The notes beneath the pieces were generated by a model that saw only the letters and a program-made list of their open reading frames with translations, was not told where the DNA came from and ran no database searches. 64,000 nt of DNA, from UHGV virus genome UHGV-0212524; one strand, written 5' to 3'. Shown here piece after piece: positions 21,835 to 39,008 of this stretch (its first letter is position 1; each line of letters begins with the position of its first letter). Origin of the DNA: a virus. The translations under genes were made by a program, and so were the position numbers.

Positions 21835-22683
21835 ATGTCTCTTACGTCAAAACAGAAACTGCTAAAACTCATCAACACTGAAAACAATATTAGTCCACCG
21901 TTGACTTTCAGTGATGTTGATATCGGAGAACCTACCGGTACTGGGGTTGATACCCAGGTGGTTCTGACCTCTAAACTCAAAGGCGATGAGTCTACTACTT
22001 TAACAGTGACTTACCACCGTCGTAATTTACCTGACTACTTAACCGGTGAGTTGGTATTCGGTAACGACAGTGTGGTAACCGCATCAGATTTGCTTAATGC
22101 GATCAACGCAAAATACAGCCTAAATATTTTACCCTCGGATATCGTTGACGCAAAAGTTGAAGGCGAAACCCATCAGCTTACCGCTAACGAGAAATCTTAC
22201 GAGTGGTGCGGTGTAGTAACGCTTACGCTGCATGATCCTATTGACCTGACTGAACTTTTACCAGTTACTCAATTAGAGAATCTGGTAGAGTATCCGTCCA
22301 CTAAGAAAGGTAACGCTGCGGTTTATTCACACCCGATTGATTTCACCGCAGAAAAAGATTACCTTGACCCGATTACTATCAACGACACCGTAGACTTGGT
22401 AGAGTTAGCCTCTAAACTGGATGGCGTCGTTGATGAGAAATGGGTAAGTGTACCTAAGAACGCGGCTAACAACCTGTACGGTGCTAAAGTTATTTACGAT
22501 GGTCCAACCGCAGGTTACGAAGGCGCAAATACGAAGTTCACTCGTGTGTTGGTGCTAACGCTCAGCCCGCTGTGTTCTAACCTGACCGGTAACCTGTTAA
22601 TTCACTTTAACGGTACCGATCGTCCGAAGTCGAAGATTGAATTAGCACAGACTAATCCGGTCTTACCGGGATTCTTAGATTAA
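21835..22683 (+). CDS. hypothetical protein, Y.(R/N)R family
   Basis: 282 aa; paralogous segments with 22697..23176 (DLL.(A/V)IN..YSL); weak RBS. Confidence 0.5.
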   Translation: MSLTSKQKLLKLINTENNISPPLTFSDVDIGEPTGTGVDTQVVLTSKLKGDESTTLTVTYHRRNLPDYLTGELVFGNDSVVTASDLLNAINAKYSLNILPSDIVDAKVEGETHQLTANEKSYEWCGVVTLTLHDPIDLTELLPVTQLENLVEYPSTKKGNAAVYSHPIDFTAEKDYLDPITINDTVDLVELASKLDGVVDEKWVSVPKNAANNLYGAKVIYDGPTAGYEGANTKFTRVLVLTLSPLCSNLTGNLLIHFNGTDRPKSKIELAQTNPVLPGFLD

Positions 22684-22696
22684 GAGGATTACAGTA

Positions 22697-23176
22697 ATGA
22701 CCAATCAAGAAACTATCTTCGACCTTATTAAAAAGGCTAACCCGGACGCTGAGTTCGACACCACCAAAGTCACGCTGGGCGATCCGGTTGTGACCACCGG
22801 TACTTACAATACCGAAATCACAGTTGCGTCAATTAAGAATCTCGGTTACACTAACGAACAAACGTTCCAGTATAACCGCATTGACGCAGGTTTGTATTTC
22901 CTGAACGTATTACCGAAACTGTTGGTAGAATCTGCAACGACTACCGCTGACTTACTGCCCGTCATTAACGAGCAGTACAGCCTAACCCTTACAGAAGACG
23001 ACGTGTGGGTAGAACAGGTTGGTGAGTTACCGTTGGACGGTAGCGCAATCGAACACGGTATTTTCTTCCGTCCTGAGTGTCTGACTTGGGTCGGCGGTTT
23101 TACGGTGCGTGTTGCACGTAAACCGGCTGTTGAAACACCGCCAGCTAAGCCATCACGCGCTAAGAAGAAAAAATAA
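22697..23176 (+). CDS. hypothetical protein, Y.(R/N)R family, Lys-rich C-terminus
   Basis: 159 aa; GAGG RBS; ends PAKPSRAKKKK; terminator follows. Confidence 0.55.
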   Translation: MTNQETIFDLIKKANPDAEFDTTKVTLGDPVVTTGTYNTEITVASIKNLGYTNEQTFQYNRIDAGLYFLNVLPKLLVESATTTADLLPVINEQYSLTLTEDDVWVEQVGELPLDGSAIEHGIFFRPECLTWVGGFTVRVARKPAVETPPAKPSRAKKKK

Positions 23177-23239: not shown

Positions 23240-23830
23240 ATGGCTGAACGTTGGTCTAAAGAAGGTATCATTGAATCCAAAACCGATTTGGAAGGCGGGT
23301 ACGTCAACGACCCTGACGACTTAGGTGCAGAAACGAACCACGGTATCACGGTAACGACTGCACGTGAGTACGGTTACACAGGGAAGATGAAAGACCTTAC
23401 CCGTGCACAAGCATTCGATATCTACGATCGCGGTTGGTGGAAGAAGCTCAAACTTGATGAGATTTTCGCTATCTCACCGTTACTCGCGGACCGGATGTTT
23501 GATTTTGGTATTAACGCAGGTCGTGCCAACTGCGTGAAATCGCTACAGCGTATTCTCAACGTGTTGAACAACGAAGGTAAACTCTACGCGGACATCGATA
23601 CCGACGGCGGTATGGGGCCTAAAACGCTGGGCGCGTTGAACGCGTACCTGAAATATCGTAAAGATGAAGGGCTAAGCATTTTAATCTTTGCGTTAATCTC
23701 GCACCAAGTAACTTACTACACGGAAATCTCCGAAAAACGTAAGAGAAACGAGAAATACACCTACGGTTGGTACGGCCGCGTCTTCAGAGAAATGGCAGAT
23801 TATGCGGTAAAAGCGGGGTTAGTAAAATGA
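23240..23830 (+). CDS. endolysin candidate, GH108-type lysozyme domain with peptidoglycan-binding region
   Basis: 196 aa; EGGYVNDPDDLGAETNHGIT fits the GH108 N-terminal signature as recalled; AGAGGAG RBS. Confidence 0.65.
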   Translation: MAERWSKEGIIESKTDLEGGYVNDPDDLGAETNHGITVTTAREYGYTGKMKDLTRAQAFDIYDRGWWKKLKLDEIFAISPLLADRMFDFGINAGRANCVKSLQRILNVLNNEGKLYADIDTDGGMGPKTLGALNAYLKYRKDEGLSILIFALISHQVTYYTEISEKRKRNEKYTYGWYGRVFREMADYAVKAGLVK

Positions 23831-23931: not shown

Positions 23932-23946
23932 GGAAAGGTGTGGGTA

Positions 23947-24612
23947 ATGGAAAAGCTTCAATATAAACGTTTAGATAATAAGTGGTTTGTATTAACGGAG
24001 GATTACCATTATCCGTTTACGTTACGTGAGATTTATCACGACCACGTACACTTAGACCGTGCGGTTTATTTAACCGGTGTATTACCTGACACGCAACTGT
24101 GGTTAACCGCTCCGAAAGGGTTCGTTACCGATTTAGCGTCAATTCCTGAACACTTACAGGGAATTTTCCATCCTGACGGACCGTGGGCACCTGCGGCCTG
24201 CATTCACGACTTACTCTATCAAAAATGTAACACGGAGCGTAGCTATCCCATGACACCGGGTGGTAACGTTTCGCGTATTATCGATAAAGAGTTCTCTGAC
24301 TTAACATTCCTGCGTATTATGCAGTCGTTGGAAATCTCGCCGTATATCTGCCAAACATTTTATAAAGCCGTGGCGGGGTTCGGTTGGGATGCTTACGTAG
24401 ACCCTAACGCGAAGCCGTCTTATACCACTAACGATTACCGTACGTTAGATTACAATCGAAACTATTTGTTCGTTCGTGAGTTTAAGGAGCCTGCTATTCC
24501 TGACCACGAACGTGTTGATATCACCACAGGTTGTCCCGTTAATGTCAAATACTTGAACATCAAACGGGCTTTTCTGTCTGGGAGGGAAGATGTTTCATCC
24601 AAATCCGAGTAA
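23947..24612 (+). CDS. hypothetical protein, possibly DUF1353-like
   Basis: ATG at 23947 with AGGAAAGG RBS; GFVTDLASIP resembles the DUF1353 signature as recalled. Confidence 0.45.
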   Translation: MEKLQYKRLDNKWFVLTEDYHYPFTLREIYHDHVHLDRAVYLTGVLPDTQLWLTAPKGFVTDLASIPEHLQGIFHPDGPWAPAACIHDLLYQKCNTERSYPMTPGGNVSRIIDKEFSDLTFLRIMQSLEISPYICQTFYKAVAGFGWDAYVDPNAKPSYTTNDYRTLDYNRNYLFVREFKEPAIPDHERVDITTGCPVNVKYLNIKRAFLSGREDVSSKSE

Positions 24613-25843: not shown

Positions 25844-26380
25844 ATGGCTAAAACCTTCAAACTGCAGTTCGTCGAAGCTGTAATTGCTAAAAACCCAGGA
25901 ACCGCTTCTAATCTGACGGTTGATGATGTCGATTTTGGTGCTGTCGAAGCGCACAGCGGTACCGGTGGTCGTAACACCAAAATTACGCTGACCGCCAAGG
26001 CAGAAAGCCAGAACTTCAAAGGCGAGAAAGAATTCCACTACATTCGTCTGGCTTCTCAAGACCTGATCGGTGCCAAAGCTTACGAAAAAGCCGGTAGCCT
26101 CGATCTGGAAAACTCTGCCATTGTAACCAAACTGAACGAAGAAATGGTTACTAAAGGTTATGTCGATGACTATTTCGCTGAAAGCGAACTGACCATTGAG
26201 AAAACTGACGGGGATAGTGGTGCTAAAGTTTACACTGTCAAAGTAAACGATGCACACATTAAATTCCTGGCTGGTACTATTGCCACCTTCACTTATTCCA
26301 ACCCAGCTCCTGAGAAGGTAGCGCTGAGCGGTCTGGAAGGTGAACTTGATGGCTTCACTGCACCGGGTGTCGGTGGCTAA
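25844..26380 (+). CDS. hypothetical protein, LDGFTA paralog family
   Basis: 178 aa; NTKITLTA..NFKGEKEFHYIRL and C-terminal GELDGFTA shared with 26450..26980. Confidence 0.6.
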   Translation: MAKTFKLQFVEAVIAKNPGTASNLTVDDVDFGAVEAHSGTGGRNTKITLTAKAESQNFKGEKEFHYIRLASQDLIGAKAYEKAGSLDLENSAIVTKLNEEMVTKGYVDDYFAESELTIEKTDGDSGAKVYTVKVNDAHIKFLAGTIATFTYSNPAPEKVALSGLEGELDGFTAPGVGG

Positions 26381-26389
26381 GTAAGTTAA

Positions 26390-26422
26390 ATCGGGGGGGG
26401 TGACCTCCCCCGATATTTCTCT
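26390..26422 (+). terminator. hairpin terminator with G-run stem
   Basis: ATCGGGGGGGG-TGACC-TCCCCCGAT between the two LDGFTA paralogs. Confidence 0.55.
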
Positions 26423-26449
26423 AACTTGTTCTATTAAGGACCTAAGATA

Positions 26450-26980
26450 ATGGCCGCTACTAACCAGATGATGTTGGTCGCGCTTTATAATGCTGCTAAC
26501 GCTGAGCTACCGCATCAGATTACAGATAAAGAAGTGTCCTTTGGTCTCCCTACTGCGCTGGAAGGCGAAAGTAAGAATACCAAAGTTACCATGACCGCAC
26601 TACCGGGTTCTGAGAATTTCAAAGGCGAAATCGAACTGCATTACGATCGTCTGGAGCCGGGTGTTGTAGGACGGATTGAACTAACTGACGATCTGTCTCG
26701 TTGGGTTCAAGAAAATGAACTCCGCGCTTGGTTACAGCTATACATCAACAAAGTAAAACCTGACGACGCTATCGCGCCAGGTGACGTTGTGTACAGCACC
26801 GAAGACCAGAAAGACGAACATGAAAACGTCACTCTGCGTACCGTGACATGCACCGTTACTGAACAGAACCTCCGTTATAAACCGGGTGTAATGGCAACTT
26901 TCGTAATTACACCGAAGGTAGTCGATAATCGTATTGACCTGGCCACCACCGACGGTGAATTGGACGGTTTTACTGCTTAA
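26450..26980 (+). CDS. hypothetical protein, LDGFTA paralog family
   Basis: 176 aa; NTKVTMTA..NFKGEIELHYDRL and C-terminal DGELDGFTA. Confidence 0.6.
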   Translation: MAATNQMMLVALYNAANAELPHQITDKEVSFGLPTALEGESKNTKVTMTALPGSENFKGEIELHYDRLEPGVVGRIELTDDLSRWVQENELRAWLQLYINKVKPDDAIAPGDVVYSTEDQKDEHENVTLRTVTCTVTEQNLRYKPGVMATFVITPKVVDNRIDLATTDGELDGFTA

Positions 26981-27019
26981 CCGCTAAGTCAACTACTATA
27001 ACAAAAAATAATAAGTTTA

Positions 27020-27050
27020 CCTACCTCCTTTACGGAGGTAGGTATTTTTT
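27020..27050. terminator. bidirectional rho-independent terminator
   Basis: CCTACCTCC..GGAGGTAGG hairpin flanked by A-run and T-run; between convergent operons. Confidence 0.75.
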
Positions 27051-27723
27051 ATTCTAATCCCATTTCCAGCGCAAGTGCACGGATCGTGTCGTAGTCACGC
27101 TGTTCGGCGTACTGACGAATTTCACTTTTCTGGGCAGACATCGCGTTGTGTAGCTGTTGGTCACGTTTCACAATAGCCGCCATTAACGCTTTACATTGCT
27201 CCAGCGTAAACGGTTCTATACGTGTATTCGACGTGTCCAGCCAATAATCCGGTGCAGTTTCAGACTGGATATATTGACCCAGCATCTGACGAGAGGTTTC
27301 ATCCGCTTGGAAATGATGGCCGTCAACTTCGATATAACCGTGACGCTGGTCTTCGTATCGGTGTTCAATTTCCAACATGATTTTCTGGATATCTAAATAG
27401 ATATAGCGAGACGTCGAGCGCATATTCGAACGAATCTCGTCCAGGTTAATCTCCAGAACGTCAGTAATGAATTCTTTTGCTTTGTTCAGTGTAAACTTCG
27501 CCTCAATAGGAGACATTTCGTAAGTTTGCATCTGAGCTAAAGCTTCTTCATCACTCATCCCTTCAATCAACTTATAGTGCAGTAATGCACAGAACCCCGT
27601 ACGACCACGGTCTTCGTTACCTACACGTTCCATGTAGTTACCGTGGCGGTCAATTGGCAGATCGTGCGCGAAATAACGCGCCCGAATCTCTTCTTTCGTT
27701 AAGCTTTTGTTAGAAGCAGACAT
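27049..27723 (-). CDS. hypothetical protein, last gene of the radical-SAM/Cys-peptide operon
   Basis: 224 aa; overlaps upstream gene by 25 nt; bidirectional terminator follows. Confidence 0.6.
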   Translation of the reverse strand: MSASNKSLTKEEIRARYFAHDLPIDRHGNYMERVGNEDRGRTGFCALLHYKLIEGMSDEEALAQMQTYEMSPIEAKFTLNKAKEFITDVLEINLDEIRSNMRSTSRYIYLDIQKIMLEIEHRYEDQRHGYIEVDGHHFQADETSRQMLGQYIQSETAPDYWLDTSNTRIEPFTLEQCKALMAAIVKRDQQLHNAMSAQKSEIRQYAEQRDYDTIRALALEMGLE

Positions 27724-28265
27724 TCTTCTTCTCCAACCATACCTAATTCTTGCAGCAAGCCAAAATCAACCAACTGGAAGGTTTCAGAGAGATCGTTTGA
27801 CCACACCACGTTTGCAATGTCGCGTTCTTCATCCGTTAACTGTGGTAACACATTTTCGTTGAACGTCTGATGCTCTACGTAATAAGCATCGTAGATAGAC
27901 GTAGAACGCAAGCAACGGATTGGCAGACGCGGGAAAGACACCGCTAATGCAGCAATAGATGCGCTACTCGGATTCTCCGCAGAATAACGAAGCAATTCGA
28001 TCTTGTGGCGTGGGTAATCCAGTACGCGTTGTTCGAAACCCGGATTACGTTTTTCGATTTCCACAACGGACTCATGGCCTGTCTCTGTACAGTAAACGGG
28101 AATCATCACGTTTAGCCCGTACTTAATCAACAGAGGTTTAATCTCATCTGTAAAGTCTTCACCAGGGATAATGGCGTGAACGTTATAGAGTTTGTGTTTG
28201 CGCAGAAAACGCTCAACCAGGTGGAGTTTACGCTTCGTAAAATTGTGGATCAGAATTGATTTCAT
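27699..28265 (-). CDS. hypothetical protein
   Basis: Start at internal ATG 28265 (GAGG RBS); overlaps the radical SAM gene 3' end. Confidence 0.55.
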   Translation of the reverse strand: MKSILIHNFTKRKLHLVERFLRKHKLYNVHAIIPGEDFTDEIKPLLIKYGLNVMIPVYCTETGHESVVEIEKRNPGFEQRVLDYPRHKIELLRYSAENPSSASIAALAVSFPRLPIRCLRSTSIYDAYYVEHQTFNENVLPQLTDEERDIANVVWSNDLSETFQLVDFGLLQELGMVGEEECLLLTKA

Positions 28266-29562
28266 TATTTGCCTCAGTAGGTTGTGCATTTAACGCACGT
28301 TTAGCTTGCTCACGCTCACGCGTACATTTCGGACAGTAACAAACAGACGAATCGTGCAGTGACGATGCGTGGACGGTGCCTGTACGTTGACGCCAGTATT
28401 CTGCCGCCATCAGTTTTGCGGTCGTCCAACCACATTGACGTCGTTCAGCGTGGTACGCCTTACGGTCTTCCAGTGTCCCTTCACCGTTTTCGTAGGAAGC
28501 AGCTGCACAGCTCCCACAACCGTGTTTCATCGGACAACCTAAGCACGTTTCAGGATAGTTGGTGTATTGCGTCTGAATCTCTTCCAGCAGTTTCCCGCCG
28601 TCTAAGCTAACAAACTCACGACCGACTAACTCAAACACCGCAGAGCGTGACGTTACCGTTGACATGAATCGGTTACAACCATACACCTTACGGTCAAAAC
28701 CTAAACAAGTCATAAACGTCAACGTCCCACAGAACGGACGTAAACGTTCAGGGTTATAACGGTGCGTGTCGTCGTACAGCAGTTTATCACGCCAATCTGG
28801 GTCCCAAATCTGACGGAAATCCAGACCTTCAGGAATGATGTGGGACAACACGTTACGTGGATTGGTGTGCAGCCCTTTCTCAATCCAATAATCCATCACC
28901 TCGATCATCTGCAACGCAATATCCGTTGCCATGCTCCGTGGAAGGATATCTTCGTACGTCACGTTACCCGAAATCGTACCACCACCCGCAATATCGATTA
29001 ACGACTTCATACTCGCCGCGTAATGCGGGAGGGTTTCGGTTGTAAAGGTTGCCTTGATACCCAGTTCAGCAATACCCACTTCTTTTAAGTAGTTATAGCC
29101 ACGAACAGCGGCTTCGTAAGAACCCTGACGCGTCGTGGTAAAGATACGATAACGGTCATGGACTTCTGGCAGCCCGTCGATAGACACACCGATGGAGAGT
29201 TTGTCTTTCCAACGCTCGACGATCTCACGGTTTAACGGACGGTCTAACAACGTCCCGTTCGTGGAGATACTGAACATATACGGTCGATTATGCTCCTTAC
29301 ACAACTGTTCTGCGGTTTCAAACGCCGCTAACAGCAGTTTCGGTTGCATAAAAGGTTCGCCGCCGATGATATCAATAATGACGTCGATGTTCGGAATATC
29401 TTTATCACGCTCAAAACAGGCGTGTAAGAAATCCACGATATCCGCCGCTTTGTTATTACGCGGATACTTACGTTCGTAACAATACTCACAGTCTAAGTTA
29501 CAAGACAGGTTCGTTACCACCTGGTAAGTACGTTGTGAACGTGGTGCTTCATTATTGCTCAT
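28228..29562 (-). CDS. radical SAM enzyme with C-terminal SPASM-like Cys cluster
   Basis: 444 aa; CNLDCEYC (Cx3Cx2C) near N-terminus, GGEP motif, C-terminal CLGCPMKHGCGSC plus further Cys. Confidence 0.8.
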   Translation of the reverse strand: MSNNEAPRSQRTYQVVTNLSCNLDCEYCYERKYPRNNKAADIVDFLHACFERDKDIPNIDVIIDIIGGEPFMQPKLLLAAFETAEQLCKEHNRPYMFSISTNGTLLDRPLNREIVERWKDKLSIGVSIDGLPEVHDRYRIFTTTRQGSYEAAVRGYNYLKEVGIAELGIKATFTTETLPHYAASMKSLIDIAGGGTISGNVTYEDILPRSMATDIALQMIEVMDYWIEKGLHTNPRNVLSHIIPEGLDFRQIWDPDWRDKLLYDDTHRYNPERLRPFCGTLTFMTCLGFDRKVYGCNRFMSTVTSRSAVFELVGREFVSLDGGKLLEEIQTQYTNYPETCLGCPMKHGCGSCAAASYENGEGTLEDRKAYHAERRQCGWTTAKLMAAEYWRQRTGTVHASSLHDSSVCYCPKCTREREQAKRALNAQPTEANNEINSDPQFYEA

Positions 29563-30469
29563 CTTTGCTTATCCTTTTACGCTCTGCATAAATCACGCGT
29601 TTAATGTACTCGTAAGCACCTACCCCGATAGAGCAAGCAAGCTGATTGCACCCACCGTTTAAGATAGCCGGTGCATTCTGAAGCTGATGTTCTGTTCCAT
29701 CTGCGTTCAAATACAACTCTTCGCTACAGACATTACACTCGTTTTCGAAAATCTTGCTGACAGACACGCCGCACGATTCTCCGGTTTGGACGTTCAGCCG
29801 TTCCATATTCTCCTGAATCTTTAAATAACCATAAACGAAGTTCATGATGTGATCGGGAGACAACGGTTTTGGCATTTGGGCATCAAACATCAGAGAAAAC
29901 GCACGGGGACGATAGTGGTACATCGCACGATGTAAATCCACAATATCTTCATACCAGCGCTTATCGGCTAACTGGTCACGCGTAATCACAGCCCAGGTTT
30001 GGAAGTTATCGAGTTCGTATAACGCTTCCAGTGCTTCGTGGCTATCCTCTTCAATAAAGCGCATAAAAGGGCGCTCAGAACGTTTGTAGCCATCAATTGA
30101 TACAAACACATGCTCAAAGTCTTTTAGCAGCGTAAGATGCGATTTACGCAGTTTTAAGCCGTTGGTATACAAGTGATGCTCAAGGTGCGGATGAGACACT
30201 TTCAGTTCGTTAACGAAATCCTCAATCTTACGTTGGACGAGTAGCGGTTCACCACCCGTCCAATGTATTTCCTTAATAGCTGGATTCTCTTGTAGTAATT
30301 CCAGGATACGTTCGCGTTGAAAAGCACGAGACGAATCTTCACGATTCATGTAGTAGGCTCCACCGCAGAAACTACAGTCTAGGTTACACTTAGACGTCGT
30401 AACTACGGACAATATAGTGGGTTTATCGTACAACTTCGTCGAGATCCTGGATTCCACATTGTCTATCAT
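29552..30469 (-). CDS. radical SAM enzyme (second, shorter; possible twitch/partial SPASM)
   Basis: 305 aa; CNLDCSFC (Cx3Cx2C), TGGEPLL, C-terminal Cys (C..CNVC..GGCNQLAC); 11-nt overlap with next gene. Confidence 0.75.
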   Translation of the reverse strand: MIDNVESRISTKLYDKPTILSVVTTSKCNLDCSFCGGAYYMNREDSSRAFQRERILELLQENPAIKEIHWTGGEPLLVQRKIEDFVNELKVSHPHLEHHLYTNGLKLRKSHLTLLKDFEHVFVSIDGYKRSERPFMRFIEEDSHEALEALYELDNFQTWAVITRDQLADKRWYEDIVDLHRAMYHYRPRAFSLMFDAQMPKPLSPDHIMNFVYGYLKIQENMERLNVQTGESCGVSVSKIFENECNVCSEELYLNADGTEHQLQNAPAILNGGCNQLACSIGVGAYEYIKRVIYAERKRISKDEQ

Positions 30470-30489: not shown

Positions 30490-31377
30490 TTAAATATAAT
30501 CGATGGCGAATAAAGGATCTTCGTCGAAGTTAACACCGGGTTTTAAAATCAGTGGCGAATTATACGCTTCCAGTAAACGGTTAAGTTCGTTGTAGCGGCT
30601 ATTCATCCGTTTGAGGTCTTCTAAGGTCACAACACGGTCAAGCATCGGCTTAACTGCTTCGGCTTCTTCGTCAGTCAGTTTAACTTTCGACAGCAAGAAG
30701 CTGACGAGTTTGGAAATGTCCGCTTCGGTAGCTGGGCTCTGACCAAAACGTACCTGAACCATATGCTGCATCCACGGTTTACGAATGCGTTTCGTAATCA
30801 CGTGTTCGTCAGTGATGGCTTTCCAAACCGAACGTTCACGAATCCATTCGAACTTATAGCTGTACGCCATTAAGTCGGCCAGATGCGTAATTCCGAGTTC
30901 TTGATAGCCTTCAATATCGATATACGGTTCCGTATCAAAATACTCTTTGGTATCTTTTTCAACCAACGCGTAATAGTTAGGGAACGCACCCAGGTAGTCT
31001 GGACTCCACCAACGACGGGCCATTGGTTTAGCATCGAGTTCTTCAAACGGTGTGAACATAAGTTCTAAGTCAACTGTATTATTTAACACACCGTCGCTAA
31101 AGAAATATTTACCGTCGATAAGTTTACCGCGTTGTGAGTTGTCACCGGTAAAGACAACGATGCTTTCGCCAACCATATCACGAATTTTGAACGTATTCTC
31201 AACCGTAAAGTTGTCACGATTAGCGATATGACGACCACGCACTTTCGGCCATTCCCCAGGAATCATGGCAATTAAGCGTACATCATCAGCAAGATGGTGA
31301 CGTACCGAATCAGGGGAAGAGATGTGAAGTGGATGATTGAACGTTGTCGTATATGCAAGATGTAGATCGTTCTTCAT
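30490..31377 (-). CDS. hypothetical protein between Cys-rich peptide genes and radical SAM enzymes
   Basis: 295 aa; GGAG RBS; no recognisable motif. Confidence 0.6.
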   Translation of the reverse strand: MKNDLHLAYTTTFNHPLHISSPDSVRHHLADDVRLIAMIPGEWPKVRGRHIANRDNFTVENTFKIRDMVGESIVVFTGDNSQRGKLIDGKYFFSDGVLNNTVDLELMFTPFEELDAKPMARRWWSPDYLGAFPNYYALVEKDTKEYFDTEPYIDIEGYQELGITHLADLMAYSYKFEWIRERSVWKAITDEHVITKRIRKPWMQHMVQVRFGQSPATEADISKLVSFLLSKVKLTDEEAEAVKPMLDRVVTLEDLKRMNSRYNELNRLLEAYNSPLILKPGVNFDEDPLFAIDYI

Positions 31378-31498: not shown

Positions 31499-31708
31499 TT
31501 ACCTGCCTCCCCCTGCACCTTTACTACAGCTACCACTGCACGCCCAGCTACAACTCCCATTACAGTTATAGTGAGTTAACGGTAATCCTGCCAAGTTATT
31601 CGTTGAGGACACCGTACCCTGATTAGCAATATAGTTATTCGCATCTGTGGTTTTAATGTAGCCTTCAACCTGACCGATTCTGTCTCGAATATTTTTGAGG
31701 GAAATCAC
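31499..31708 (-). CDS. Cys-rich precursor-like peptide C (leader + short CxxxC core)
   Basis: 69 aa; GTG start with AGGAGGTGA RBS; leader MISLKNIRDRIGQVEG...; core YNCNGSCSWACSGSCSKGAGGGR. Confidence 0.7.
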   Translation of the reverse strand: MISLKNIRDRIGQVEGYIKTTDANNYIANQGTVSSTNNLAGLPLTHYNCNGSCSWACSGSCSKGAGGGR

Positions 31709-31718
31709 TTCTCACCTC

Positions 31719-32114
31719 CTATCGTCCTGTGCACGACGAGCAGCCACCGGTACAGCTACTGGAGCACGATGCTGTACAGCCGCCCGTACAAGTGCCCGAG
31801 CACGCATTAGCGCACCCACCCGAACAACTCCCCGAACACCCTGAACAGCTACTTGAACACCCTGACGTACAGTTTGCAGAGCATGAAGAACCGCAACCAC
31901 CAGACGCGTTCCCTGTACAGCCACCAGAGCAACTCGAGCAGGTAAAGGAACACGTGCCCGCACAGTCATAATGCGCACGATTCCGACCACCGAACAGGTC
32001 CGCGTTATTCGTGGCCTTATTGCGGATGTAGTTCTGTACACCTGTGGTGTTTTTCAGCGCGATACTATCGACGTTATTAAGACGTCTTACTAATTCAGCT
32101 AATCCAACCGCCAT
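31719..32114 (-). CDS. Cys-rich precursor-like peptide B (leader + long CxxxC-repeat core)
   Basis: 131 aa; AGGGGGA RBS; ~55-aa leader then ~75 aa of C/S/G/T/A/N with ~20 Cys mostly spaced Cx3C; ends GR. Confidence 0.7.
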   Translation of the reverse strand: MAVGLAELVRRLNNVDSIALKNTTGVQNYIRNKATNNADLFGGRNRAHYDCAGTCSFTCSSCSGGCTGNASGGCGSSCSANCTSGCSSSCSGCSGSCSGGCANACSGTCTGGCTASCSSSCTGGCSSCTGR

Positions 32115-32123
32115 TTCTTCCCC

Positions 32124-32516
32124 CTATCGACCAGAGCAACCGCCGGAGCAAGCACCCGAACAGTTATGCGAACAACGCCCAGTACAACTTCCAGTACAGG
32201 TACTTGTACAACTGCTAGAACAAGCCCCCGAGCAGCCAGAGCATCCCGAACAGTTGCCCCCACAGGACGAAGAGCAGCTACCCACGCACGACGCTGAACA
32301 GTTTCCTGAACAGCTCGAGCAACCGTGAGTACATCCGTTAGAACATGTCCACGAACACGCTCCTCCGCAGTCTAAACGCGAAGGCGTCCAACCGGAAAAC
32401 GAATCTGCCGCGTTATGCGCTTTCGATGCGACCTGCGCATTGACACGAGGGCCGGTAGCGACTGTATTTTCTACTGTGGTTAACCGATCGCGCATTTGTT
32501 TAACACTAATCGCCAT
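32124..32516 (-). CDS. Cys-rich precursor-like peptide A (leader + long CxxxC-repeat core)
   Basis: 130 aa; AAGGA RBS; leader MAISVKQMRDRLTTVEN...; core DCGGACSWTCSNGCTHGC...; ends GR. Confidence 0.7.
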   Translation of the reverse strand: MAISVKQMRDRLTTVENTVATGPRVNAQVASKAHNAADSFSGWTPSRLDCGGACSWTCSNGCTHGCSSCSGNCSASCVGSCSSSCGGNCSGCSGCSGACSSSCTSTCTGSCTGRCSHNCSGACSGGCSGR

Positions 32517-32581: not shown

Positions 32582-33787
32582 TTATTTCGTACCCGCTTCC
32601 GCCTGTACGTCATCACGAGACGTCAGGTTAGCGTTAACGTGTACTGGGGCCTGAACCACACCACCGTATCTCTTGTGGAGATAACCGGTGTGCGGGTTAT
32701 CTGCCGCGATGTGGTTTTGTAGGTTCTGGTTCGCTTGACTGATTGCGTTCGTGTTATTGTTAACTTGCTGTTTAAGCGCATCCAGGTTCTGTTGTACCTG
32801 ATCGATTTTCTGATCGGTTTCTTGACCCTGTTGCTCTAACGCGGCAACACGCTGAATAACCTGATTCAGTTTTGTGTTTAAATCGTTGATGCTCTTTTGC
32901 AGTTGTAACACTAACGAGTTCAGGTTCGCTAACGCTAAGGCCATTTTCTGGTAGTTTTGAGCAACCACGTTAAGTTGGTCGTTCCACGCTTCCAGAGAGT
33001 TGACAACAGCGTCAATACGCTTACCTAAAGCTTCGTCCGCTTTCTTCAGTGCATTGATTTCCGTAATCGTTGCGTCGATGGCAGACTGGACGTCACGAAT
33101 AAGCGCACGGATTTCAGTTTCTGTTAACCCGTTAACCTGATGAATATCAAGATGGTGAACGTTACCGGTTGCGTTGATGTGTGCATTTAAAGCGTCTAAG
33201 AAGTCATTTTTCAGGCTTTCTAAAATCGCTTTAATGTTCTCTAACTGTACCGCGTCACCGGAACTGATCGCATCTTTAATACCCGCCAATACGGTAATGA
33301 TATATTCAAAACCGTAGATGTCACCCACGTCTTTATACGTCGGTGCAGATGGGAATGTATCCGGTACGTTACGCAGGTCTTTAAACGCAATCGTACGGTT
33401 ATCGAGGTTTAATTCAGCAATCGCCTGTTCGATAGCCACAATGTTCGCAGACTGTGGACCACCAACGACCTGCGCAGATACCGTAATATCTGTTGGAATC
33501 GCTGTGTTAGTGACCACCACCGCCATAACAATCTCGCGGTTTTTAGTCAGCTTTTCATAAGTCGGGTGTGCAAAAATCAACTCATAATCGGTACCACGTT
33601 CGTAGGTTGCATCCGGTCGGTTAGCAACACGTAAACGGAACGTGTCCGCAAAGAACGGGCCGTCAGGAAAAGCAAAAGCACGGTTTACTTTACCTGTACC
33701 TAACGTAATCTGACGCTCTACAGCGTTAGACGTTAGCGAGCCCGTTAAATCTAAAGGATATTGATAAACAATGGAGGCCATGGCCAC
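32582..33787 (-). CDS. tail fibre-like protein with coiled-coil C-terminal half
   Basis: 401 aa; N-terminal FPDGPFF..RLRV....TDYEL module shared with three upstream giants; Q/N/L-rich coiled coil. Confidence 0.7.
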   Translation of the reverse strand: MAMASIVYQYPLDLTGSLTSNAVERQITLGTGKVNRAFAFPDGPFFADTFRLRVANRPDATYERGTDYELIFAHPTYEKLTKNREIVMAVVVTNTAIPTDITVSAQVVGGPQSANIVAIEQAIAELNLDNRTIAFKDLRNVPDTFPSAPTYKDVGDIYGFEYIITVLAGIKDAISSGDAVQLENIKAILESLKNDFLDALNAHINATGNVHHLDIHQVNGLTETEIRALIRDVQSAIDATITEINALKKADEALGKRIDAVVNSLEAWNDQLNVVAQNYQKMALALANLNSLVLQLQKSINDLNTKLNQVIQRVAALEQQGQETDQKIDQVQQNLDALKQQVNNNTNAISQANQNLQNHIAADNPHTGYLHKRYGGVVQAPVHVNANLTSRDDVQAEAGTK

Positions 33788-33821: not shown

Positions 33822-36800
33822 TTAAGATGTAAACATAAGATTGAACTGGAGTTTGTCGATATCGCGAGTTTCCGCCGGATTCACGGCATCGTACGCGGTC
33901 GCTACGTAAACGGTTAGCGTACCGTTAGCGTAAGACGATTTCACCGGTGGGTTAGTTCCGGTCTGACCATCTCGGACAATGAGCGTAGGTTCACTCGGGA
34001 GATTGTCAAACTGACCCTTGACCGCTTTATACACCAAACCAGATTGCGCAGCCAGTTCAGTGTCCGTAAAGACAAAGAACGGTGTGTCGATATCAGCCTG
34101 CTTGACGATGGTGTTCGATTCAACGTCAATCAACTGTACCGCCCCAAACTTCGTACGATAACTTTCATACTCGTTCTTCGGAATAACGAACGTGACATGA
34201 ACACGAACCTCCTCGGCAGGTTTAAACCCACTGTGCTCTTTTTCCAGGTACTGGTTGGCGGTTAACGTTACCGTTTGTTCAGTCATCGTACCACCGGCCT
34301 GGTTTAATGCATACCGAGCTTCAACAATACCGGTTGGTGCAGCAAGTCGTAGTTTCAGAGCACGATTCGCCGTTCCTGGATTACCTGGCACCTGAACACG
34401 CAAACTCAATGCTAAGTAAGCATTCGTTCCGGTAGTCGGTTTCGTATACGCACCAATCCATTTCATGTTCGCAGACGCTGCCTGCATGTTCTCAGAAGCA
34501 GTGGCTGTCGCAATGTTAGCAGCTACCGCTTTCTGCCAGAATTGGTCAGCGCAGTTCTCATACGCTACCCTGGCCACGCTCTTATAACCCGAATACGTTT
34601 CCTGAATTGGTAACTTAGGACGCGTCGTAATGCCGGACAGTGAACCCCATTTCTGACCGTCAACATACCCTTCACCTTTCGACGCAGACGCCGTAGGTGC
34701 TTTAACGGGCTTGTTAACCAGTGTTAATAGAGGACCCGTCTTTCTGTCAAACGCTGCTGCTACATCGTGTTGGTCGATAATTGCTGCGTGGTCTTCCAGT
34801 TCTTTCACACGACCCAAACGTTTTACTTTGTCGATACTGATACCAGTAATACGGCTGGAATCGGTGGTTACTGTCCCAACGAACAGTCTTGTTGAGGTAT
34901 CGGCTAACTGCTCCAAACCGATGCGGTATTGCGCGGTAGAACCCGACACCTCAGCGTGCACGTAGAACGTCTGGTTAGCGTGATTGGATGGGAACTCACT
35001 GCTTAAATCCACAGACCACGTTGGGAGTGTGTAACTGCTGCTACCGAAATCTAATTTGACTTCTTCTGTCAAATACAGAATCCAACCTTCCGCTGTTTCC
35101 ACACCGGCAATAATAACCGCCTGACCTCCGGTTGAGAACGTCGTGTCGTTAACGAACTCTGCGGCTGTATACGCGTTACCTGAACAGAAAACACGGTCAG
35201 CTTTAGAGTAAATCAACGCCATCTTGTCCCAATCACCGGCACCCATATAGCACCCAGATTCTGGTCTATGTTCAGGGGCCATCTGCCGTAACTGTGATTT
35301 ACCTGCAACGCGTGTCCAACCTGAACCAGGGTCGAAGGTATATTTAGCAGCGTAGCCCAGGGCGTTTAAGTCCCCGATATTTCGGGTAGTTAACGTATAA
35401 GGTAACCAGATACCGAAGTTAGTTCCATCCGCAGATGCAAAAATAGGCTGCCCCACGCGCCTCGTTTTACCTCCCGCTCCCCCATTTAGTGACTGATAAC
35501 TTAAACCATAATCGAGGTCTAAGAACCAGTCCACCAACTTAAAGGTGGCTGAGTTGAAACGTAAGTAGCCGTTCTCTTTAGATGGGCTCACCATGAAGTA
35601 ATAGATGTCAAGAATTCGACGTCCGTTACTTGAGGTTTTCATGCACGAAACTTGCAACAAGTCAAATTCGCACACGGTGTTGATACCCAACATCCAAAGA
35701 GCAAACAATGCATTACCGGTTTGATGTGCAGCACTAATACGTTCGTTCGCGTAACCATTTGCTTGACCAGATGGCGCACCGTCAACGATCATCCGAATCA
35801 TTTTCTGCCGATCGGCTTCTTCTAGCGTTAAGCGTTCGGAAGACAATGCGAAGTTACCGTAGATGTTACGATACGGGAACGTTTCTGCTTTGGTCAAATA
35901 CCAGCCGTTCAACTGTCCATGACGCTCCTCAGGGATCATGCACGCAGCCATACAGCTAAGCTGCTCGTAAAGCGTTGGATCGACTTCACGACGGTTGTTG
36001 TTCGGACCGTACCCACTATACCCAGAAACATCGTAAGGTTTGTTCGGATCAACTTCCACTTCGATCGTGTAACGGTTACGAGGGTTCGATAACCAGACCT
36101 TATTCGAACCACCAATCCCTACTGGATAAGACAAACCGATGGTGTAAATGGAGCCACGGCCTTTATCCCAGGTAAACGTTCCTTCGCCCGAGGTGTTGTT
36201 TGGGTTATCGTAACGCAGATAATCGAAAAGCTCTCTGCCTTGTGTACTCTTAATAGAAACATTAGGCATTTGGTCCGCATCGGCAATTTGCCAACAGGAA
36301 AGCATCATTCCTGTACCGTTGGGTTTAGCATACGTCGCGAAACAACGGTTGTTTGCCTGGCCACCACCCCACTTACGATTGGTTCCTACAGTTGAACCAT
36401 CTGCGAACGAGAGTGTAGTAGTAGCATCAGCCTTGATGGGGAAGCGTTCGCGGCCTTCTAACGTAACCTTGCCCGTCAACGTATCGATTGTAAAACTTGT
36501 TGCCCATTGAAGGAAATTAATCGTCGTACCGTCGGCCGCTGCAAACCACACGGTAGGCATATGGTTCACACGAATCACGCTATCGCGCACAGCACACGCG
36601 TGGTTACATTCTGGACCGTGAACAAAGTTACGCCCGATCGTCCATTTAGCACGACCCTCCGGTGTGAGATATGTAAAGAATTGACCCGTTTGCGACTCTT
36701 CGGTTTTCTGACCAATACGCAAGCAGAGGTTATCTCCGAATTGTCCCATCTCGCCGGTTAGAGTTACACGTTCAAATTCTAACGTAGTGTTAGTAGACAA

Positions 36801-39008
36801 ATCGGCCTTACGTAGACGCCAAGCTGCTACGGCGTAAGCGGAGTTATTTACCGTTGAACGGAGAAGATAAACGTAGTCCTCAACCAACACGACATCGTCA
36901 GCTTCCGGCCACGGGTTCCAGGTTTGTTCCACAGTACCACTGGGGTTGCCGTTACGGTACACGGGCATCGTAACGCGACATACCACCGTGTGCTTAGTGT
37001 GGTCCATCGAGCCATTAAACAGCACCAAATAACGGTTATTGTCAGAACCCAGGCAAATAATCGCTTCCTGGCCACCGATCAATATCGCTATTAGGGTCAC
37101 CCCAGGATATTTACTCATCCCGGCAGGGTGATATTTCACTGAGGTCTGCTGCGGATTTACAAACGCGTTTGACGTGTCAATGTCAGCATAGCCGTAATAA
37201 ATAGCTTCCGTACCCGGCACGCCGTTAGAACCGTTACGGAGCGAATAAACCTTACCCTGCTGATACCCAACAACCCCTTTCTGGTAGGACTGGTTTTTGG
37301 TATAGCCTGCGTAGTTACCTAACGCTGGGATAGGTAAGAAGTTCTTGTTACCGAATTTCGCTCCACCTACCGTCCACGCCGGTAAGATGGTATTCAGTTT
37401 ATCAGAGACCTTCTTAATCTCTTTTGCGAACAACCAGCCTTGACGCGACGTGACAGCTTTATCGTTAGTGGTGTCAATTGCATCCCAGAGCTGTAAGATA
37501 CCGTCAACCGTTGCACTACCAATCGGGACGTTATCCAAGTCAGCAGTGGTGTGGGTGTGCGTTTTCAAACTCTTGTTTTTCAACACGTTCGTTAACGCTT
37601 TTGTCACAGGCTTATCACTCGGTATGGTGTTATCCATCTTATCGATACCGAAATCGGTTTTCGTTAAGGTTAACACCATATTGTCGCCTGTTTTAACAAA
37701 CCCTTTACCGTTAACGGTATAGTCATCGTCAACGTACAAGTCCAAGCGGTCTTTTAATTCTGTTACAGCTTTCTGGGAGATAGCAGTACCTAACGCCGCA
37801 GACGTAGAGATATTCGTAATCGAGAACAACCCATAAACTGATTCGGACGCCGTGGGAATATTCGCGTTTAACGTAACCGGGTTAGTCTGTTTTGCGGTAC
37901 CGTACGGTTTTACAGTGTCTGACGCTTTGAAATACGCGTTTGCTTCAAGCAACGTTACTGACGTCAGATACATGTTCACCATTTCTGGTGTAACCAGGTA
38001 CACGGAGTTATAAACTGGCGCTAATACGTCCTGTTCCGACCCCGAGTGAACCCAAAGCGTATTCAGACCCGCACTGAATTCAACCGCTAAACCCGATTCG
38101 TTGTTGTCCTGGTCTGCTTTAATCACCAACGGTTGTGGCGAGGTAATTAACCACTTATCACCACGAATACTGATGATGTGGCCACCTGACGTTTTAAACG
38201 TTAATTCATTACCGTTCGTGGTACCCCATCGACCGTAAACGGTGCCGAGGGCTTCACCCATTAACTGGTCAACGTCCGATTGCTCAATACCCGCTGAACC
38301 CATCAGCGTAGCCAACTCGTCAATCGTCAACCCAAACGCTTTTGTAGCGTCAACAGCACGACCTAATACCGGGAGAGCAGCAATGTCATCAGTGGTATAA
38401 TGATGCGCGTTAGGGTTACGGTGATGCTGGTATAACTCTTCGTCGAAAACCTTTTTACCGTTCTCGTAAATCAAGTTAGTGACTTCACTGAACGCAGCAT
38501 CTAATTCCGTAGAACGTTTGATGATTTTCTTGCGAATGTCTTCTAACGCCTTAACAACCTCATCCCTCAGAATCGCTTCTTCTAAGTTAGCAGGCGGGTC
38601 GATAGGCTGAATAACCGGCGCATACGCCATTAGTTCAGACCAGTCCACGTTACGTGGGTCTTTCAGGTCAGTACGAACTAAGAACTTCCCGATTTCAGAT
38701 TGCGGTACACGGTATTGACGTGCTACCCCTAAAATCTCATATTCGATTTCTGTTGCAGTAAGCAACATAAACCCGCCGTAAATCTGATCTTGTTCAGCTT
38801 CTGCGAGTTCTTTAAAGTAATAGCCTAAATAGTAGTCCAACCCCTCAATCAGAGTACGACGTCCGTTAGGCGCGGTATCGTCGGCTACTGTGAGTTTTAA
38901 TCCGATACGATAAAAAGGTCCTTCAGGCGGAATGACCACGTTAAATCGGTTAGGGTACGTCGCTGTGCTTAGCGTACCGTTAAACTGCGCCGCGTCTTCT
39001 CTCGGCAT
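33822..39008 (-). CDS. giant tail fibre/spike-like structural protein (1728 aa)
   Basis: N-terminal IPPEGPFY..LKLTV....GLDYYL module; AGGAG RBS. Confidence 0.75.
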   Translation of the reverse strand: MPREDAAQFNGTLSTATYPNRFNVVIPPEGPFYRIGLKLTVADDTAPNGRRTLIEGLDYYLGYYFKELAEAEQDQIYGGFMLLTATEIEYEILGVARQYRVPQSEIGKFLVRTDLKDPRNVDWSELMAYAPVIQPIDPPANLEEAILRDEVVKALEDIRKKIIKRSTELDAAFSEVTNLIYENGKKVFDEELYQHHRNPNAHHYTTDDIAALPVLGRAVDATKAFGLTIDELATLMGSAGIEQSDVDQLMGEALGTVYGRWGTTNGNELTFKTSGGHIISIRGDKWLITSPQPLVIKADQDNNESGLAVEFSAGLNTLWVHSGSEQDVLAPVYNSVYLVTPEMVNMYLTSVTLLEANAYFKASDTVKPYGTAKQTNPVTLNANIPTASESVYGLFSITNISTSAALGTAISQKAVTELKDRLDLYVDDDYTVNGKGFVKTGDNMVLTLTKTDFGIDKMDNTIPSDKPVTKALTNVLKNKSLKTHTHTTADLDNVPIGSATVDGILQLWDAIDTTNDKAVTSRQGWLFAKEIKKVSDKLNTILPAWTVGGAKFGNKNFLPIPALGNYAGYTKNQSYQKGVVGYQQGKVYSLRNGSNGVPGTEAIYYGYADIDTSNAFVNPQQTSVKYHPAGMSKYPGVTLIAILIGGQEAIICLGSDNNRYLVLFNGSMDHTKHTVVCRVTMPVYRNGNPSGTVEQTWNPWPEADDVVLVEDYVYLLRSTVNNSAYAVAAWRLRKADLSTNTTLEFERVTLTGEMGQFGDNLCLRIGQKTEESQTGQFFTYLTPEGRAKWTIGRNFVHGPECNHACAVRDSVIRVNHMPTVWFAAADGTTINFLQWATSFTIDTLTGKVTLEGRERFPIKADATTTLSFADGSTVGTNRKWGGGQANNRCFATYAKPNGTGMMLSCWQIADADQMPNVSIKSTQGRELFDYLRYDNPNNTSGEGTFTWDKGRGSIYTIGLSYPVGIGGSNKVWLSNPRNRYTIEVEVDPNKPYDVSGYSGYGPNNNRREVDPTLYEQLSCMAACMIPEERHGQLNGWYLTKAETFPYRNIYGNFALSSERLTLEEADRQKMIRMIVDGAPSGQANGYANERISAAHQTGNALFALWMLGINTVCEFDLLQVSCMKTSSNGRRILDIYYFMVSPSKENGYLRFNSATFKLVDWFLDLDYGLSYQSLNGGAGGKTRRVGQPIFASADGTNFGIWLPYTLTTRNIGDLNALGYAAKYTFDPGSGWTRVAGKSQLRQMAPEHRPESGCYMGAGDWDKMALIYSKADRVFCSGNAYTAAEFVNDTTFSTGGQAVIIAGVETAEGWILYLTEEVKLDFGSSSYTLPTWSVDLSSEFPSNHANQTFYVHAEVSGSTAQYRIGLEQLADTSTRLFVGTVTTDSSRITGISIDKVKRLGRVKELEDHAAIIDQHDVAAAFDRKTGPLLTLVNKPVKAPTASASKGEGYVDGQKWGSLSGITTRPKLPIQETYSGYKSVARVAYENCADQFWQKAVAANIATATASENMQAASANMKWIGAYTKPTTGTNAYLALSLRVQVPGNPGTANRALKLRLAAPTGIVEARYALNQAGGTMTEQTVTLTANQYLEKEHSGFKPAEEVRVHVTFVIPKNEYESYRTKFGAVQLIDVESNTIVKQADIDTPFFVFTDTELAAQSGLVYKAVKGQFDNLPSEPTLIVRDGQTGTNPPVKSSYANGTLTVYVATAYDAVNPAETRDIDKLQFNLMFTS

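Follow-up and report, generated by a model that had tools for sequence, protein, structure and literature searches.

The question raised by this locus is what two overlapping genes for radical S-adenosylmethionine (SAM) enzymes are doing in the tail operon of a phage. The genes lie in a 64,000-nucleotide stretch of the UHGV virus genome UHGV-0212524 (hereafter the window, meaning the whole stretch analysed), from a Seoulvirus-like (SPN3US-related) jumbo phage with ~74% nucleotide identity to the nearest named phages. A preliminary description of the pair, made from the DNA letters alone, had pointed to Cys-rich open reading frames (ORFs) upstream as likely substrates, and had implied a natural product of the class of the RiPPs (peptides synthesized by the ribosome and modified after translation). 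The answer that we favour is that the radical SAM (rSAM) pair is probably the enzymatic core of a conserved cassette for the maturation of cysteine repeats in tail fibres, the product probably being thioether cross-links and not a secreted RiPP. The members of the cassette in the window, three of which carry Cys tracts of the CXXX type, are the following:

28228..29562, minus strand: large rSAM/SPASM enzyme, 444 aa; orthologue of SPN3US gp163
29552..30469, minus strand: small rSAM enzyme, 305 aa; orthologue of SPN3US gp164
30490..31377, minus strand: accessory protein, 295 aa; orthologue of SPN3US gp165; phrog_8030
31499..31708, minus strand: CXXX-repeat protein C, 69 aa, GTG start, 4 Cys; phrog_6085 (1.6e-25)
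31719..32114, minus strand: CXXX-repeat protein B, 131 aa, 20 Cys, paralogue of A; phrog_6085 (1.6e-42)
32124..32516, minus strand: CXXX-repeat protein A, 130 aa, 21 Cys; phrog_6085 (1.6e-36)

The radical SAM gene pair

The adjacent, overlapping pair that had been described was recovered exactly: the stop end of the small gene shares 11 nt with the start of the large one (ATGAGCAATAA), and the AAGGA Shine-Dalgarno (SD) sequence of the large, downstream gene is located within the small, upstream gene, both features agreeing with the tight coupling proposed earlier. Since the two ORFs have many orthologues, they are real genes and not chance ORFs. Their motifs are also where they had been reported, with CNLDCEYC at residue 21, GGE at 67, CLGCPMKHGCGSC at 340 and CYCPKC at 408 in the large enzyme, and with CNLDCSFC at 28, GGE at 72 and C-terminal Cys at 233, 245, 248, 274 and 279 in the small one. 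The CX3CX2C and GGE motifs do not vary among 20 homologues of the large enzyme (C21/25/28 and residues 67-69) and 18 of the small one (C28/32/35 and residues 72-74), and both proteins score above the gathering cutoff (29.5 bits) of the Pfam hidden Markov model (HMM) Radical_SAM, PF04055, with 53.3 bits (4.7e-14) for the large enzyme and 55.8 bits (8.3e-15) for the small one. Judged by their sequences, the two ORFs are bona fide rSAM enzymes, and their placement in the peptide- and protein-modifying SPASM/twitch branch of the superfamily is likewise supported, more tentatively so for the small one.

The large enzyme had been credited with a full SPASM-type domain holding auxiliary Fe-S clusters. 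When this was checked by domain annotation the answer was divided, as Radical_SAM was matched, together with Fer4_12, and the Pfam SPASM model (PF13186) was not at E <= 0.1; the preliminary description had named such an absence as grounds for refutation, and it is a first point against our reading. Precomputed Pfam assignments for its homologues likewise lack SPASM, and JGI names some of them 'radical SAM protein with 4Fe4S-binding SPASM domain'. The canonical SPASM motif consists of seven Cys (CX9-15GX4C ... CX2CX5CX3C ... C) by which two auxiliary [4Fe-4S] clusters are bound. In an alignment of 20 large-enzyme sequences with identities as low as 26%, eight auxiliary Cys (C278, C286, C296, C340, C343, C349, C352 and C377) are kept family-wide and are invariant or nearly so; their spacing is C278-x12-(G/R291)-x4-C296, then C340-x2-C343-x5-C349-x2-C352, then C377, with C286 as an extra residue, and the central CX2CX5CX2C is one residue shorter than in canonical SPASM. 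In the PDB the large-enzyme profile matched CteB (5WGG; 4.4e-34, profile positions 17-351) and anSME (3.8e-17), and in each case the alignment extends through the SPASM region. The AlphaFold (AF2) model of the large enzyme is confident (pLDDT 86.9, pTM 0.84), and its top Foldseek matches in the PDB are CteB, ChlB, anSME and TigE over ~400 columns. According to these profile and fold tests the missing Pfam match is explained by the sensitivity of the HMM, and reading it as an absent domain was rejected. On the combined evidence of alignment and model, the large enzyme has a genuine but divergent full SPASM domain, as had been claimed, with cluster binding predicted. The CYCPKC element, which had been counted as part of the auxiliary clusters, has to be set apart: this CxCxxC (C408/410/413, window 28324..28341) falls outside the SPASM motif, is kept in the jumbo-phage clade only, and may represent an extra metal site.

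Among NCBIfam families the large enzyme scores best with TIGR04115, the peptide maturases of the 'CXXX-repeat target' family (124.8 bits, cutoff 350), and next with PapB (NF047865; 110.8 bits, cutoff 340). Its rSAM motif begins at residue 21, which corresponds to residue ~105 of CteB, and therefore there is no N-terminal RiPP recognition element (RRE) in the large enzyme.

The C-terminus of the small enzyme keeps only C245, C248 and G273-C274 in all 18 homologues, C245/C248 forming a CxxC in the jumbo clade and a CxC in distant members. The PDB matches of its profile (TigE, 1e-16; CteB, 2.5e-15; MoaA, 2.5e-13; SkfB, 1e-12; YydG is also among them) all span the core only, and the C-terminus aligned to no solved structure. 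Its NCBIfam matches are weak, the best being W-cofactor maturase, MoaA and HxsC, with QueE and viperin also at low scores. From the conserved residues, the small enzyme may carry one three-Cys auxiliary site, twitch- or MoaA-like, a twitch being a partial SPASM in which 3-4 Cys ligands surround a beta-hairpin.

Cysteine-repeat proteins and recurrence of the cassette

Within a long operon on the minus strand the cassette is placed distally, directly downstream of genes for giant tail/baseplate-fibre proteins. The order of products is 1440-, 1394- and 1728-aa giants, a 401-aa protein, the three Cys-rich ORFs, the 295-aa accessory protein, the small rSAM, the large rSAM, a 196-aa protein and a DUF4376 protein, and the orthologues of this operon in SPN3US are gp170 to gp161. 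The CXXX ORFs are found 0.9-2 kb upstream on the same strand. In protein A, residues 1-49 comprise an N-terminal helix and a tail-fibre-like 'NAAD.F.G' junction, after which the Cys tract begins; this protein matches the repeat model TIGR04114 weakly (19.5 bits vs a cutoff of 20). Protein C is a short paralogue that retains the N-terminal helix and the 'HYNCNGSCSWAC' junction motif, and a short third CXXX paralogue is also found in one of the related loci described below (L168). Throughout the tracts the Cys residues are separated by 2 or 3 residues, with one seven-residue gap in the 131-aa protein, and the tracts consist of C/S/G/T/A/N and a small number of other residues, Asp and Glu being absent. 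The junction motif reads ..NA.D.L.G.....Y[DNR]C..CS[WF][TA]C.. in the window and ..A[DN].L.G.....Y[RDN]C..C[ST][WFY][TAN]C.. ahead of most tracts across loci. The family to which all three proteins belong, phrog_6085, has no assigned function.

In comparison with SPN3US and pEa_SNUABM_29, substitutions at codon positions 1/2/3 number 27/17/74, 32/28/76 and 16/8/30 for the three ORFs, synonymous codon changes exceed non-synonymous ones, every Cys is kept, and a strong SD sequence is present at each ORF. The bias toward the third position, the synonymous excess, the conserved Cys and the SD sequences establish the three ORFs as genuine genes. Other frames or strands for the Cys-rich region, as found in public records, are ruled out by the codon-position pattern. 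DNA tandem repeats were also considered as the origin of the tracts and discarded; only weak period-12 and period-21 traces could be recognized, so that the CXXX periodicity is upheld at the level of protein.

The corresponding genes are mostly missed by the public annotation of related phages. In SPN3US (L001, minus strand) the CXXX ORFs are 10875..11267 (130 aa), 10460..10864 (134 aa) and 10238..10444 (68 aa); the annotated gp166 (RefSeq tag gp100) covers the true 134-aa gene, the counterpart of protein B, in the wrong frame, and the 130-aa and 68-aa genes are without annotation in the public record. In pEa_SNUABM_29 (L002 9412..10434), ORFs are annotated on the opposite strand over the two long CXXX genes, and the records of both phages thus call for correction. 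Because gene models of this kind lack or misframe the CXXX genes, the published proteomics of SPN3US virions could not detect their products; for the 130-aa protein the expected N-terminal tryptic peptides include VQIVEANMATGPR and IDAQVASK. Mass spectrometry of SPN3US virions lists gp160 and gp167-171 and does not list gp161-165 (PMC5694885 supplement), which fits the notion that the latter are non-structural maturation factors.

Distant homologues of the large enzyme (28-40% identity) are all found within tail modules and have the same neighbours. We refer to the four-part cassette, consisting of CXXX protein, accessory protein, small rSAM and large rSAM, as tier 1. Its occurrences in other phages are:

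L003: Deferribacter prophage with GpJ/Phage-tail_3; the tract ends a 302-aa tail-module protein; 250-aa accessory protein, small and large rSAM
L004 (also L005 and L010): Campylobacter P2-like prophage; the tract ends a PF12571 tail fibre; accessory protein, large and small rSAM, DUF1353 protein
L007 (also L006): T7-type fibre; a separate 76-aa CXXX peptide; accessory protein, small and large rSAM
L011 and L012: the tract ends a 248-410-aa ORF, the L012 substrate matching tail-fibre PHROGs; accessory protein, both rSAMs
L168: Peptidase_S74 fibre; three CXXX paralogues (long, long, short); accessory protein, both rSAMs
L171: 170-kb phage; one 116-aa CXXX ORF; accessory protein, both rSAMs, DUF4376 protein

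It can be seen that tail-gene context and substrates fused or homologous to tail fibres both recur, the contexts being siphovirus-like, P2-like, T7-fibre-like and of the Peptidase_S74-fibre type. PHROG scans identify the tract-bearing proteins of L004 (PF12571; 1e-55) and L012 as tail fibres; the C-termini of the tract proteins of L003, L011 and L012 match phrog_6085, the family of the window CXXX proteins; and the cassettes of L007 and L168 adjoin tail fibres. By this homology the CXXX proteins of the jumbo phage appear to correspond to detached C-terminal ends of the tail fibres of other phages.

In most cassettes the two rSAM genes adjoin or overlap each other, and both are retained in cassettes with a single substrate (L003, L004, L011, L012, L171). 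The preliminary description had contemplated two maturases acting on three substrates, either sequentially or each on its own substrate; the three substrate genes are real, and the idea of substrate-specific maturases is contradicted by the single-substrate cassettes that keep both enzymes, which also rule out one rSAM per substrate paralogue.

The accessory protein accompanies the rSAM pair in all tier-1 cassettes; with an HMM built from jumbo-phage sequences only, its counterparts in the distant cassettes are found at values from 1e-12 to 5.5e-6. The protein combines a beta-rich N-terminal half with a helical bundle in the C-terminal part. It has no match in Pfam or NCBIfam, BFVD gave only its own orthologue, and an exhaustive profile search produced no fusions; identification with an RRE or a known chaperone was tried by these same searches and given up.

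The linkage between tracts and enzymes was evaluated in 80 viral loci retrieved with the large-enzyme alignment (1.19 Mb in total). A CXXX tract in the strict sense, (C[GSTANV]{2,3}){5,}C, occurs in 53 of the 80 loci; the 58 ORFs concerned are all on the rSAM strand at a distance of <=3.3 kb (median gap 786 bp), and no strict tract was found >4 kb from an rSAM in the entire 1.19 Mb. With a looser pattern an adjacent same-strand tract is recognized in 78 of the 80 loci, which strengthens the earlier suggestion that the Cys-rich ORFs are the likely substrates. A degenerate large-rSAM pattern scan of genome contigs, whose pattern was too generic, was of no use for host range: the matches listed were mostly unrelated SPASM enzymes, and the Deferribacter and Campylobacter prophages were missed.

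A second type of locus (tier 2) has a single bona fide TIGR04115 enzyme of ~440-460 aa (446-634 bits) with proteins of 30-126 Cys, and is without accessory protein or small rSAM; bona fide TIGR04115 members accompanied by CXXX proteins are abundant on viral contigs, and where a tier-2 locus was examined, in one case, baseplate genes directly precede the CXXX gene. The boundary of the family is marked by L169 and L170 (the P0118/P0120 branch), whose large-type rSAMs have neither CXXX tract nor accessory protein. In L169 (2398..7251) two large-type rSAMs flank a 674-aa ORF, and the substrate of this branch probably differs from CXXX.

Some individual loci have features of their own. Two S-AdoMet lyase (SAMase) genes (L171 1234..3502) lie 2-5 kb upstream of a tier-1 cassette, so that this phage both degrades and depends on SAM. 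A tail module with a bona fide TIGR04115 rSAM/CXXX pair also encodes, 3.6 kb downstream of that pair, a reverse transcriptase (phrog_1423; L024 12830..13855), which may be part of a diversity-generating retroelement in the same receptor-binding region. Among tier-2 CXXX proteins an extreme one contains 126 Cys in 563 aa, and another has a CXXX N-terminus joined to two Gly-rich domains (L023 5859..7547; L056 4606..7101).

Proposed maturation of the tract and competing readings

We infer that the CXXX tract is the substrate of the rSAM pair, and propose the following course of events. In the cytoplasm of the infected cell the Cys tract, itself unstructured, would be presented by the accessory protein. 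By means of 5'-deoxyadenosyl radicals generated from SAM and of its two auxiliary [4Fe-4S] clusters, the large SPASM enzyme would turn many of the thiols of the tract into covalent cross-links of the C-S (thioether) type. The small rSAM, produced in coupled stoichiometry, would add a second step of another kind on this tract, or would serve as a partner subunit. What results would be a rigid rod or knot, stapled covalently and built into the baseplate or tail-fibre apparatus, with the rSAMs and the accessory protein left out of the virion. A C-S ladder appears the most likely product because the closest characterized relatives, CteB and PapB, make thioethers, several Cys of each substrate being converted into C-S cross-links (PMC12373016); by the same analogy thioether chemistry is presumed for the window. 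The single-substrate cassettes with both rSAMs, and the adjacency of the two genes, suggest that one and the same tract is acted on in two steps or by a complex. The roles outlined for the small rSAM and for the accessory protein are putative, as is the incorporation of the three small CXXX proteins into virions.

Several observations weigh against this reading, in addition to the missing Pfam SPASM match already mentioned. The large enzyme scores far under the TIGR04115 and PapB cutoffs. It is without CteB's N-terminal RRE, and the accessory protein has no RRE-like fold, so that neither accounts for substrate recognition. The eight auxiliary Cys form a fully ligated, anSME-like pattern, unlike the open-site pattern of the auxiliary Cys in CteB. 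The acceptors used by PapB are carboxylate side chains in Cys-X3-Asp/Glu motifs (PMC12373016), and, there being no Asp or Glu in the window tracts, this carboxylate-acceptor chemistry cannot apply literally. The Cys/Ser/Gly-rich tracts also resemble metallothionein-like metal binders.

The alternative that survives best is that the CXXX tails are metal- or Fe-S-binding (metallothionein-like) fibre elements, and that the rSAMs carry out oxidation of Cys/Ser to formylglycine (anSME-like), D-epimerization (YydG/PoyD-like) or some other C-H functionalization that hardens the tract. The C-x2/3-C spacing is typical of metal ligands, the tract has no acidic acceptors of the PapB type, anSME is among the best sequence and fold matches of the large enzyme and shares its eight-Cys pattern, and the epimerase YydG and MoaA are among the profile matches of the small one. 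We nevertheless consider this alternative unlikely: no anSME recognition motif (C/S-x-P/A-x-R) occurs in the tract, TIGR04115 and PapB, which are the nearest named families, consist of Cys-directed maturases, and Cys is the sole invariant residue of the substrates, which points to Cys as the reactive partner.

A classical RiPP system, with the Cys-rich ORFs as leader-plus-core precursors of a phage sactipeptide- or ranthipeptide-like toxin or signal that is modified by both rSAMs, cleaved and released, is in our estimate decidedly improbable. It would agree with the fact that the closest characterized relatives, PapB and SCIFF/CteB, are RiPP maturases, and the conserved ~49-aa N-terminal part of the small proteins could serve as a leader; there is also a tendency in the literature to call the genes of phage rSAM maturases 'antibiotic synthesis' genes (PMC12801897), a labelling that speaks for the same view. 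However, the operon and its flanks contain no leader peptidase, ABC exporter or immunity gene, and the window cassette does not have the make-up of a RiPP gene cluster, for which a short precursor with a cleavable leader, a PqqD-like RRE, and a leader peptidase and/or exporter would be expected; neither the enzyme nor the accessory protein provides an RRE. Moreover, in L003, L004, L011 and L012 the tract ends a tail-module protein of 248-410 aa and not a short peptide, and the cassette is always within tail modules. It is on these grounds (no protease or exporter nearby, a tract fused to tail fibres, a tail-fibre operon) that the natural product implied by the preliminary description is disfavoured.

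That the rSAM pair is unrelated to the Cys-rich ORFs, and represents a metabolic or nucleotide/cofactor module (MoaA/QueE/viperin-like) placed in a tail operon by chance, is hardly credible, as the low-scoring NCBIfam matches of the small enzyme to W-cofactor maturase, MoaA, QueE and viperin are far under the family cutoffs, and as that view, in spite of one public record (H20) that auto-annotates the pair as albA and moaA, is at odds both with the near-obligate co-occurrence of both rSAMs, CXXX proteins and accessory protein across unrelated phages and with the grouping of both enzymes, by profile, with peptide-modifying rSAMs.

The maturation of a fibre tract can be further placed by comparison with known systems. 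The closest is the curated pairing of TIGR04115 and TIGR04114, in which a SPASM-type rSAM likewise stands beside proteins with Cys at every fourth residue. The window enzyme, with 124.8 bits vs the cutoff of 350, belongs to a sister lineage of ~25% identity; the window type differs from tier 2 by the addition of a second, small rSAM and of a 250-320-aa accessory protein, and by tracts of 4-30 Cys placed on fibre ends with an aromatic junction motif, as opposed to substrates of 30-126 Cys. CteB (the SCIFF maturase, 5WGG/5WHY) is the best match of solved structure by sequence, profile and fold, and PapB, the maturase of the ranthipeptide freyrasin, is the second-best NCBIfam family of the large enzyme. 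The large enzyme differs in having eight auxiliary Cys instead of seven, with CX2CX5CX2C spacing, and in having no N-terminal RRE; the window substrates, moreover, are without acidic acceptors and apparently structural proteins, and a second rSAM is part of the cassette. The features of the PapB family itself (at least 340 bits, Cys-X3-Asp/Glu substrates) are absent, with 110.8 bits and no Asp/Glu.

The His-Xaa-Ser system offers a parallel of organization, with a short-period repeat protein (HxsA), paired rSAMs (the SPASM-type HxsB and the smaller HxsC) and HxsD. The repeats there are of His/Ser and not of Cys, the Hxs system is cellular with no link to phage tails, and the scores are far under the cutoffs (large enzyme vs HxsB, 74.4 bits, cutoff 370; small enzyme vs HxsC, 47.2 bits, third best, cutoff 268). 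Likewise anSME aligns with the large enzyme over its full length including SPASM (fold E 7e-11), and QhpD (quino_hemo_SAM) is among its NCBIfam matches. Both anSME and QhpD act on folded-protein precursors, and QhpD forms intra-protein Cys thioethers; the window system differs in having no anSME target motif, in its repeats with tens of Cys, and in being phage-encoded and linked to tail fibres.

In its position the cassette resembles tail-fibre chaperones (P2 gpG/Tfa, T4 gp38/gp57A, the intramolecular Peptidase_S74). In the P2-like prophage it comes right after the tail-fibre gene, which we take to be the position normally held by the fibre-assembly chaperone gene gpG of P2; its products are missing from the SPN3US virion list, and DUF1353 and DUF4376 proteins recur nearby. 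The likeness does not extend further, as there is no similarity of sequence or fold, and a radical covalent maturation is proposed as opposed to non-covalent help in folding.

The pairing of an rSAM/SPASM enzyme with CXXX repeats is therefore not new in itself, being known from the curated HMMs TIGR04115 and TIGR04114. Our literature search found no biochemical study of that system and none tying it to phage tails, nor any paper describing such a virion modification or CXXX-repeat rSAMs in phages. The window system is a distinct form of the TIGR04115-like system, characterized by the second rSAM, by an accessory protein with no recognizable fold, and by substrates at tail-fibre ends. As a broader and tentative proposal, it is quite possible that phages of several unrelated tail types install a C-S ladder at the end of the fibre, yielding a stapled element that is proof against reductants and proteases, and that TIGR04115 is largely a phage tail-fibre maturation system and not a RiPP system of the bacteriocin type.

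If this is true, no enzymatic radical post-translational modification of a virion structural protein would have been described before it, and radical SAM chemistry would join the ways in which viruses build particles, with an enzyme set that staples a receptor-side structure; a well-known covalent cross-link in virions, the isopeptide chainmail of the HK97 capsid, forms autocatalytically. The orphan rSAM system with CXXX-repeat targets would acquire a biological role, and the accessory protein may turn out to be a partner of a new kind, which presents substrates to SPASM enzymes without RRE. The proposal is directly testable, as SPN3US is culturable and has a collection of amber mutants and published virion proteomes. 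Cys-ladder tracts and their maturases could also serve as ultra-stable peptide scaffolds.

Neighbouring genes

The remaining genes of the operon that were annotated in detail are the following:

27049..27723, minus strand: DUF4376 protein, 224 aa; orthologue of SPN3US gp161; Pfam 5.8e-11; last gene of the operon
27699..28289, minus strand: 196-aa protein; phrog_7988; orthologue of SPN3US gp162; no assigned function
32582..33787, minus strand: 401-aa coiled-coil virion protein; gp167 orthologue; PHROG virion structural family
33822..39008, minus strand: 1728-aa giant tail protein; gp168 orthologue; PHROG virion structural family

The 196-aa gene is directly 3' of the large rSAM gene and overlaps it, and a homologue likewise follows the large rSAM in L168 (BLASTP 4e-11); it is a clade-specific fifth component of the cassette. 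The DUF4376 domain is present in tail and tail-fibre PHROGs, and recurs near the L171 cassette. SPN3US gp168 has been described as a tail protein similar to phiKZ gp131, which sits on the baseplate's periphery or in the fibres (PMC5105663). A large rSAM 100% identical to that of the window is found on contigs as long as 226 kb that were deposited under Salmonella enterica, and on the IMG/VR contig L008.

Beyond the DUF4376 gene, a perfect hairpin with an 11-bp stem and T-runs on both sides (27018..27044) separates convergent operons, and looks like a bidirectional intrinsic terminator. Beside the convergent end of the operon four paralogous DUF7941 proteins are encoded on the plus strand (21835..22683, 22697..23176, 25844..26380 and 26450..26980); by position, SPN3US gp160, with 184-264 spectra in virions, is the counterpart of the copies at 25844..26980. 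A DUF1353 protein (23938..24612, plus strand), called 'tail assembly chaperone' in the SPN3US RefSeq record, is encoded near the cassette, and in the Campylobacter P2-like prophage a DUF1353 gene (L004 8068..8433) comes directly after the rSAM pair, so this protein may be a further recurrent partner of the cassette. An endolysin with GH108 and PG_binding_3 domains (23240..23830, plus strand) is located amid the tail-associated genes.

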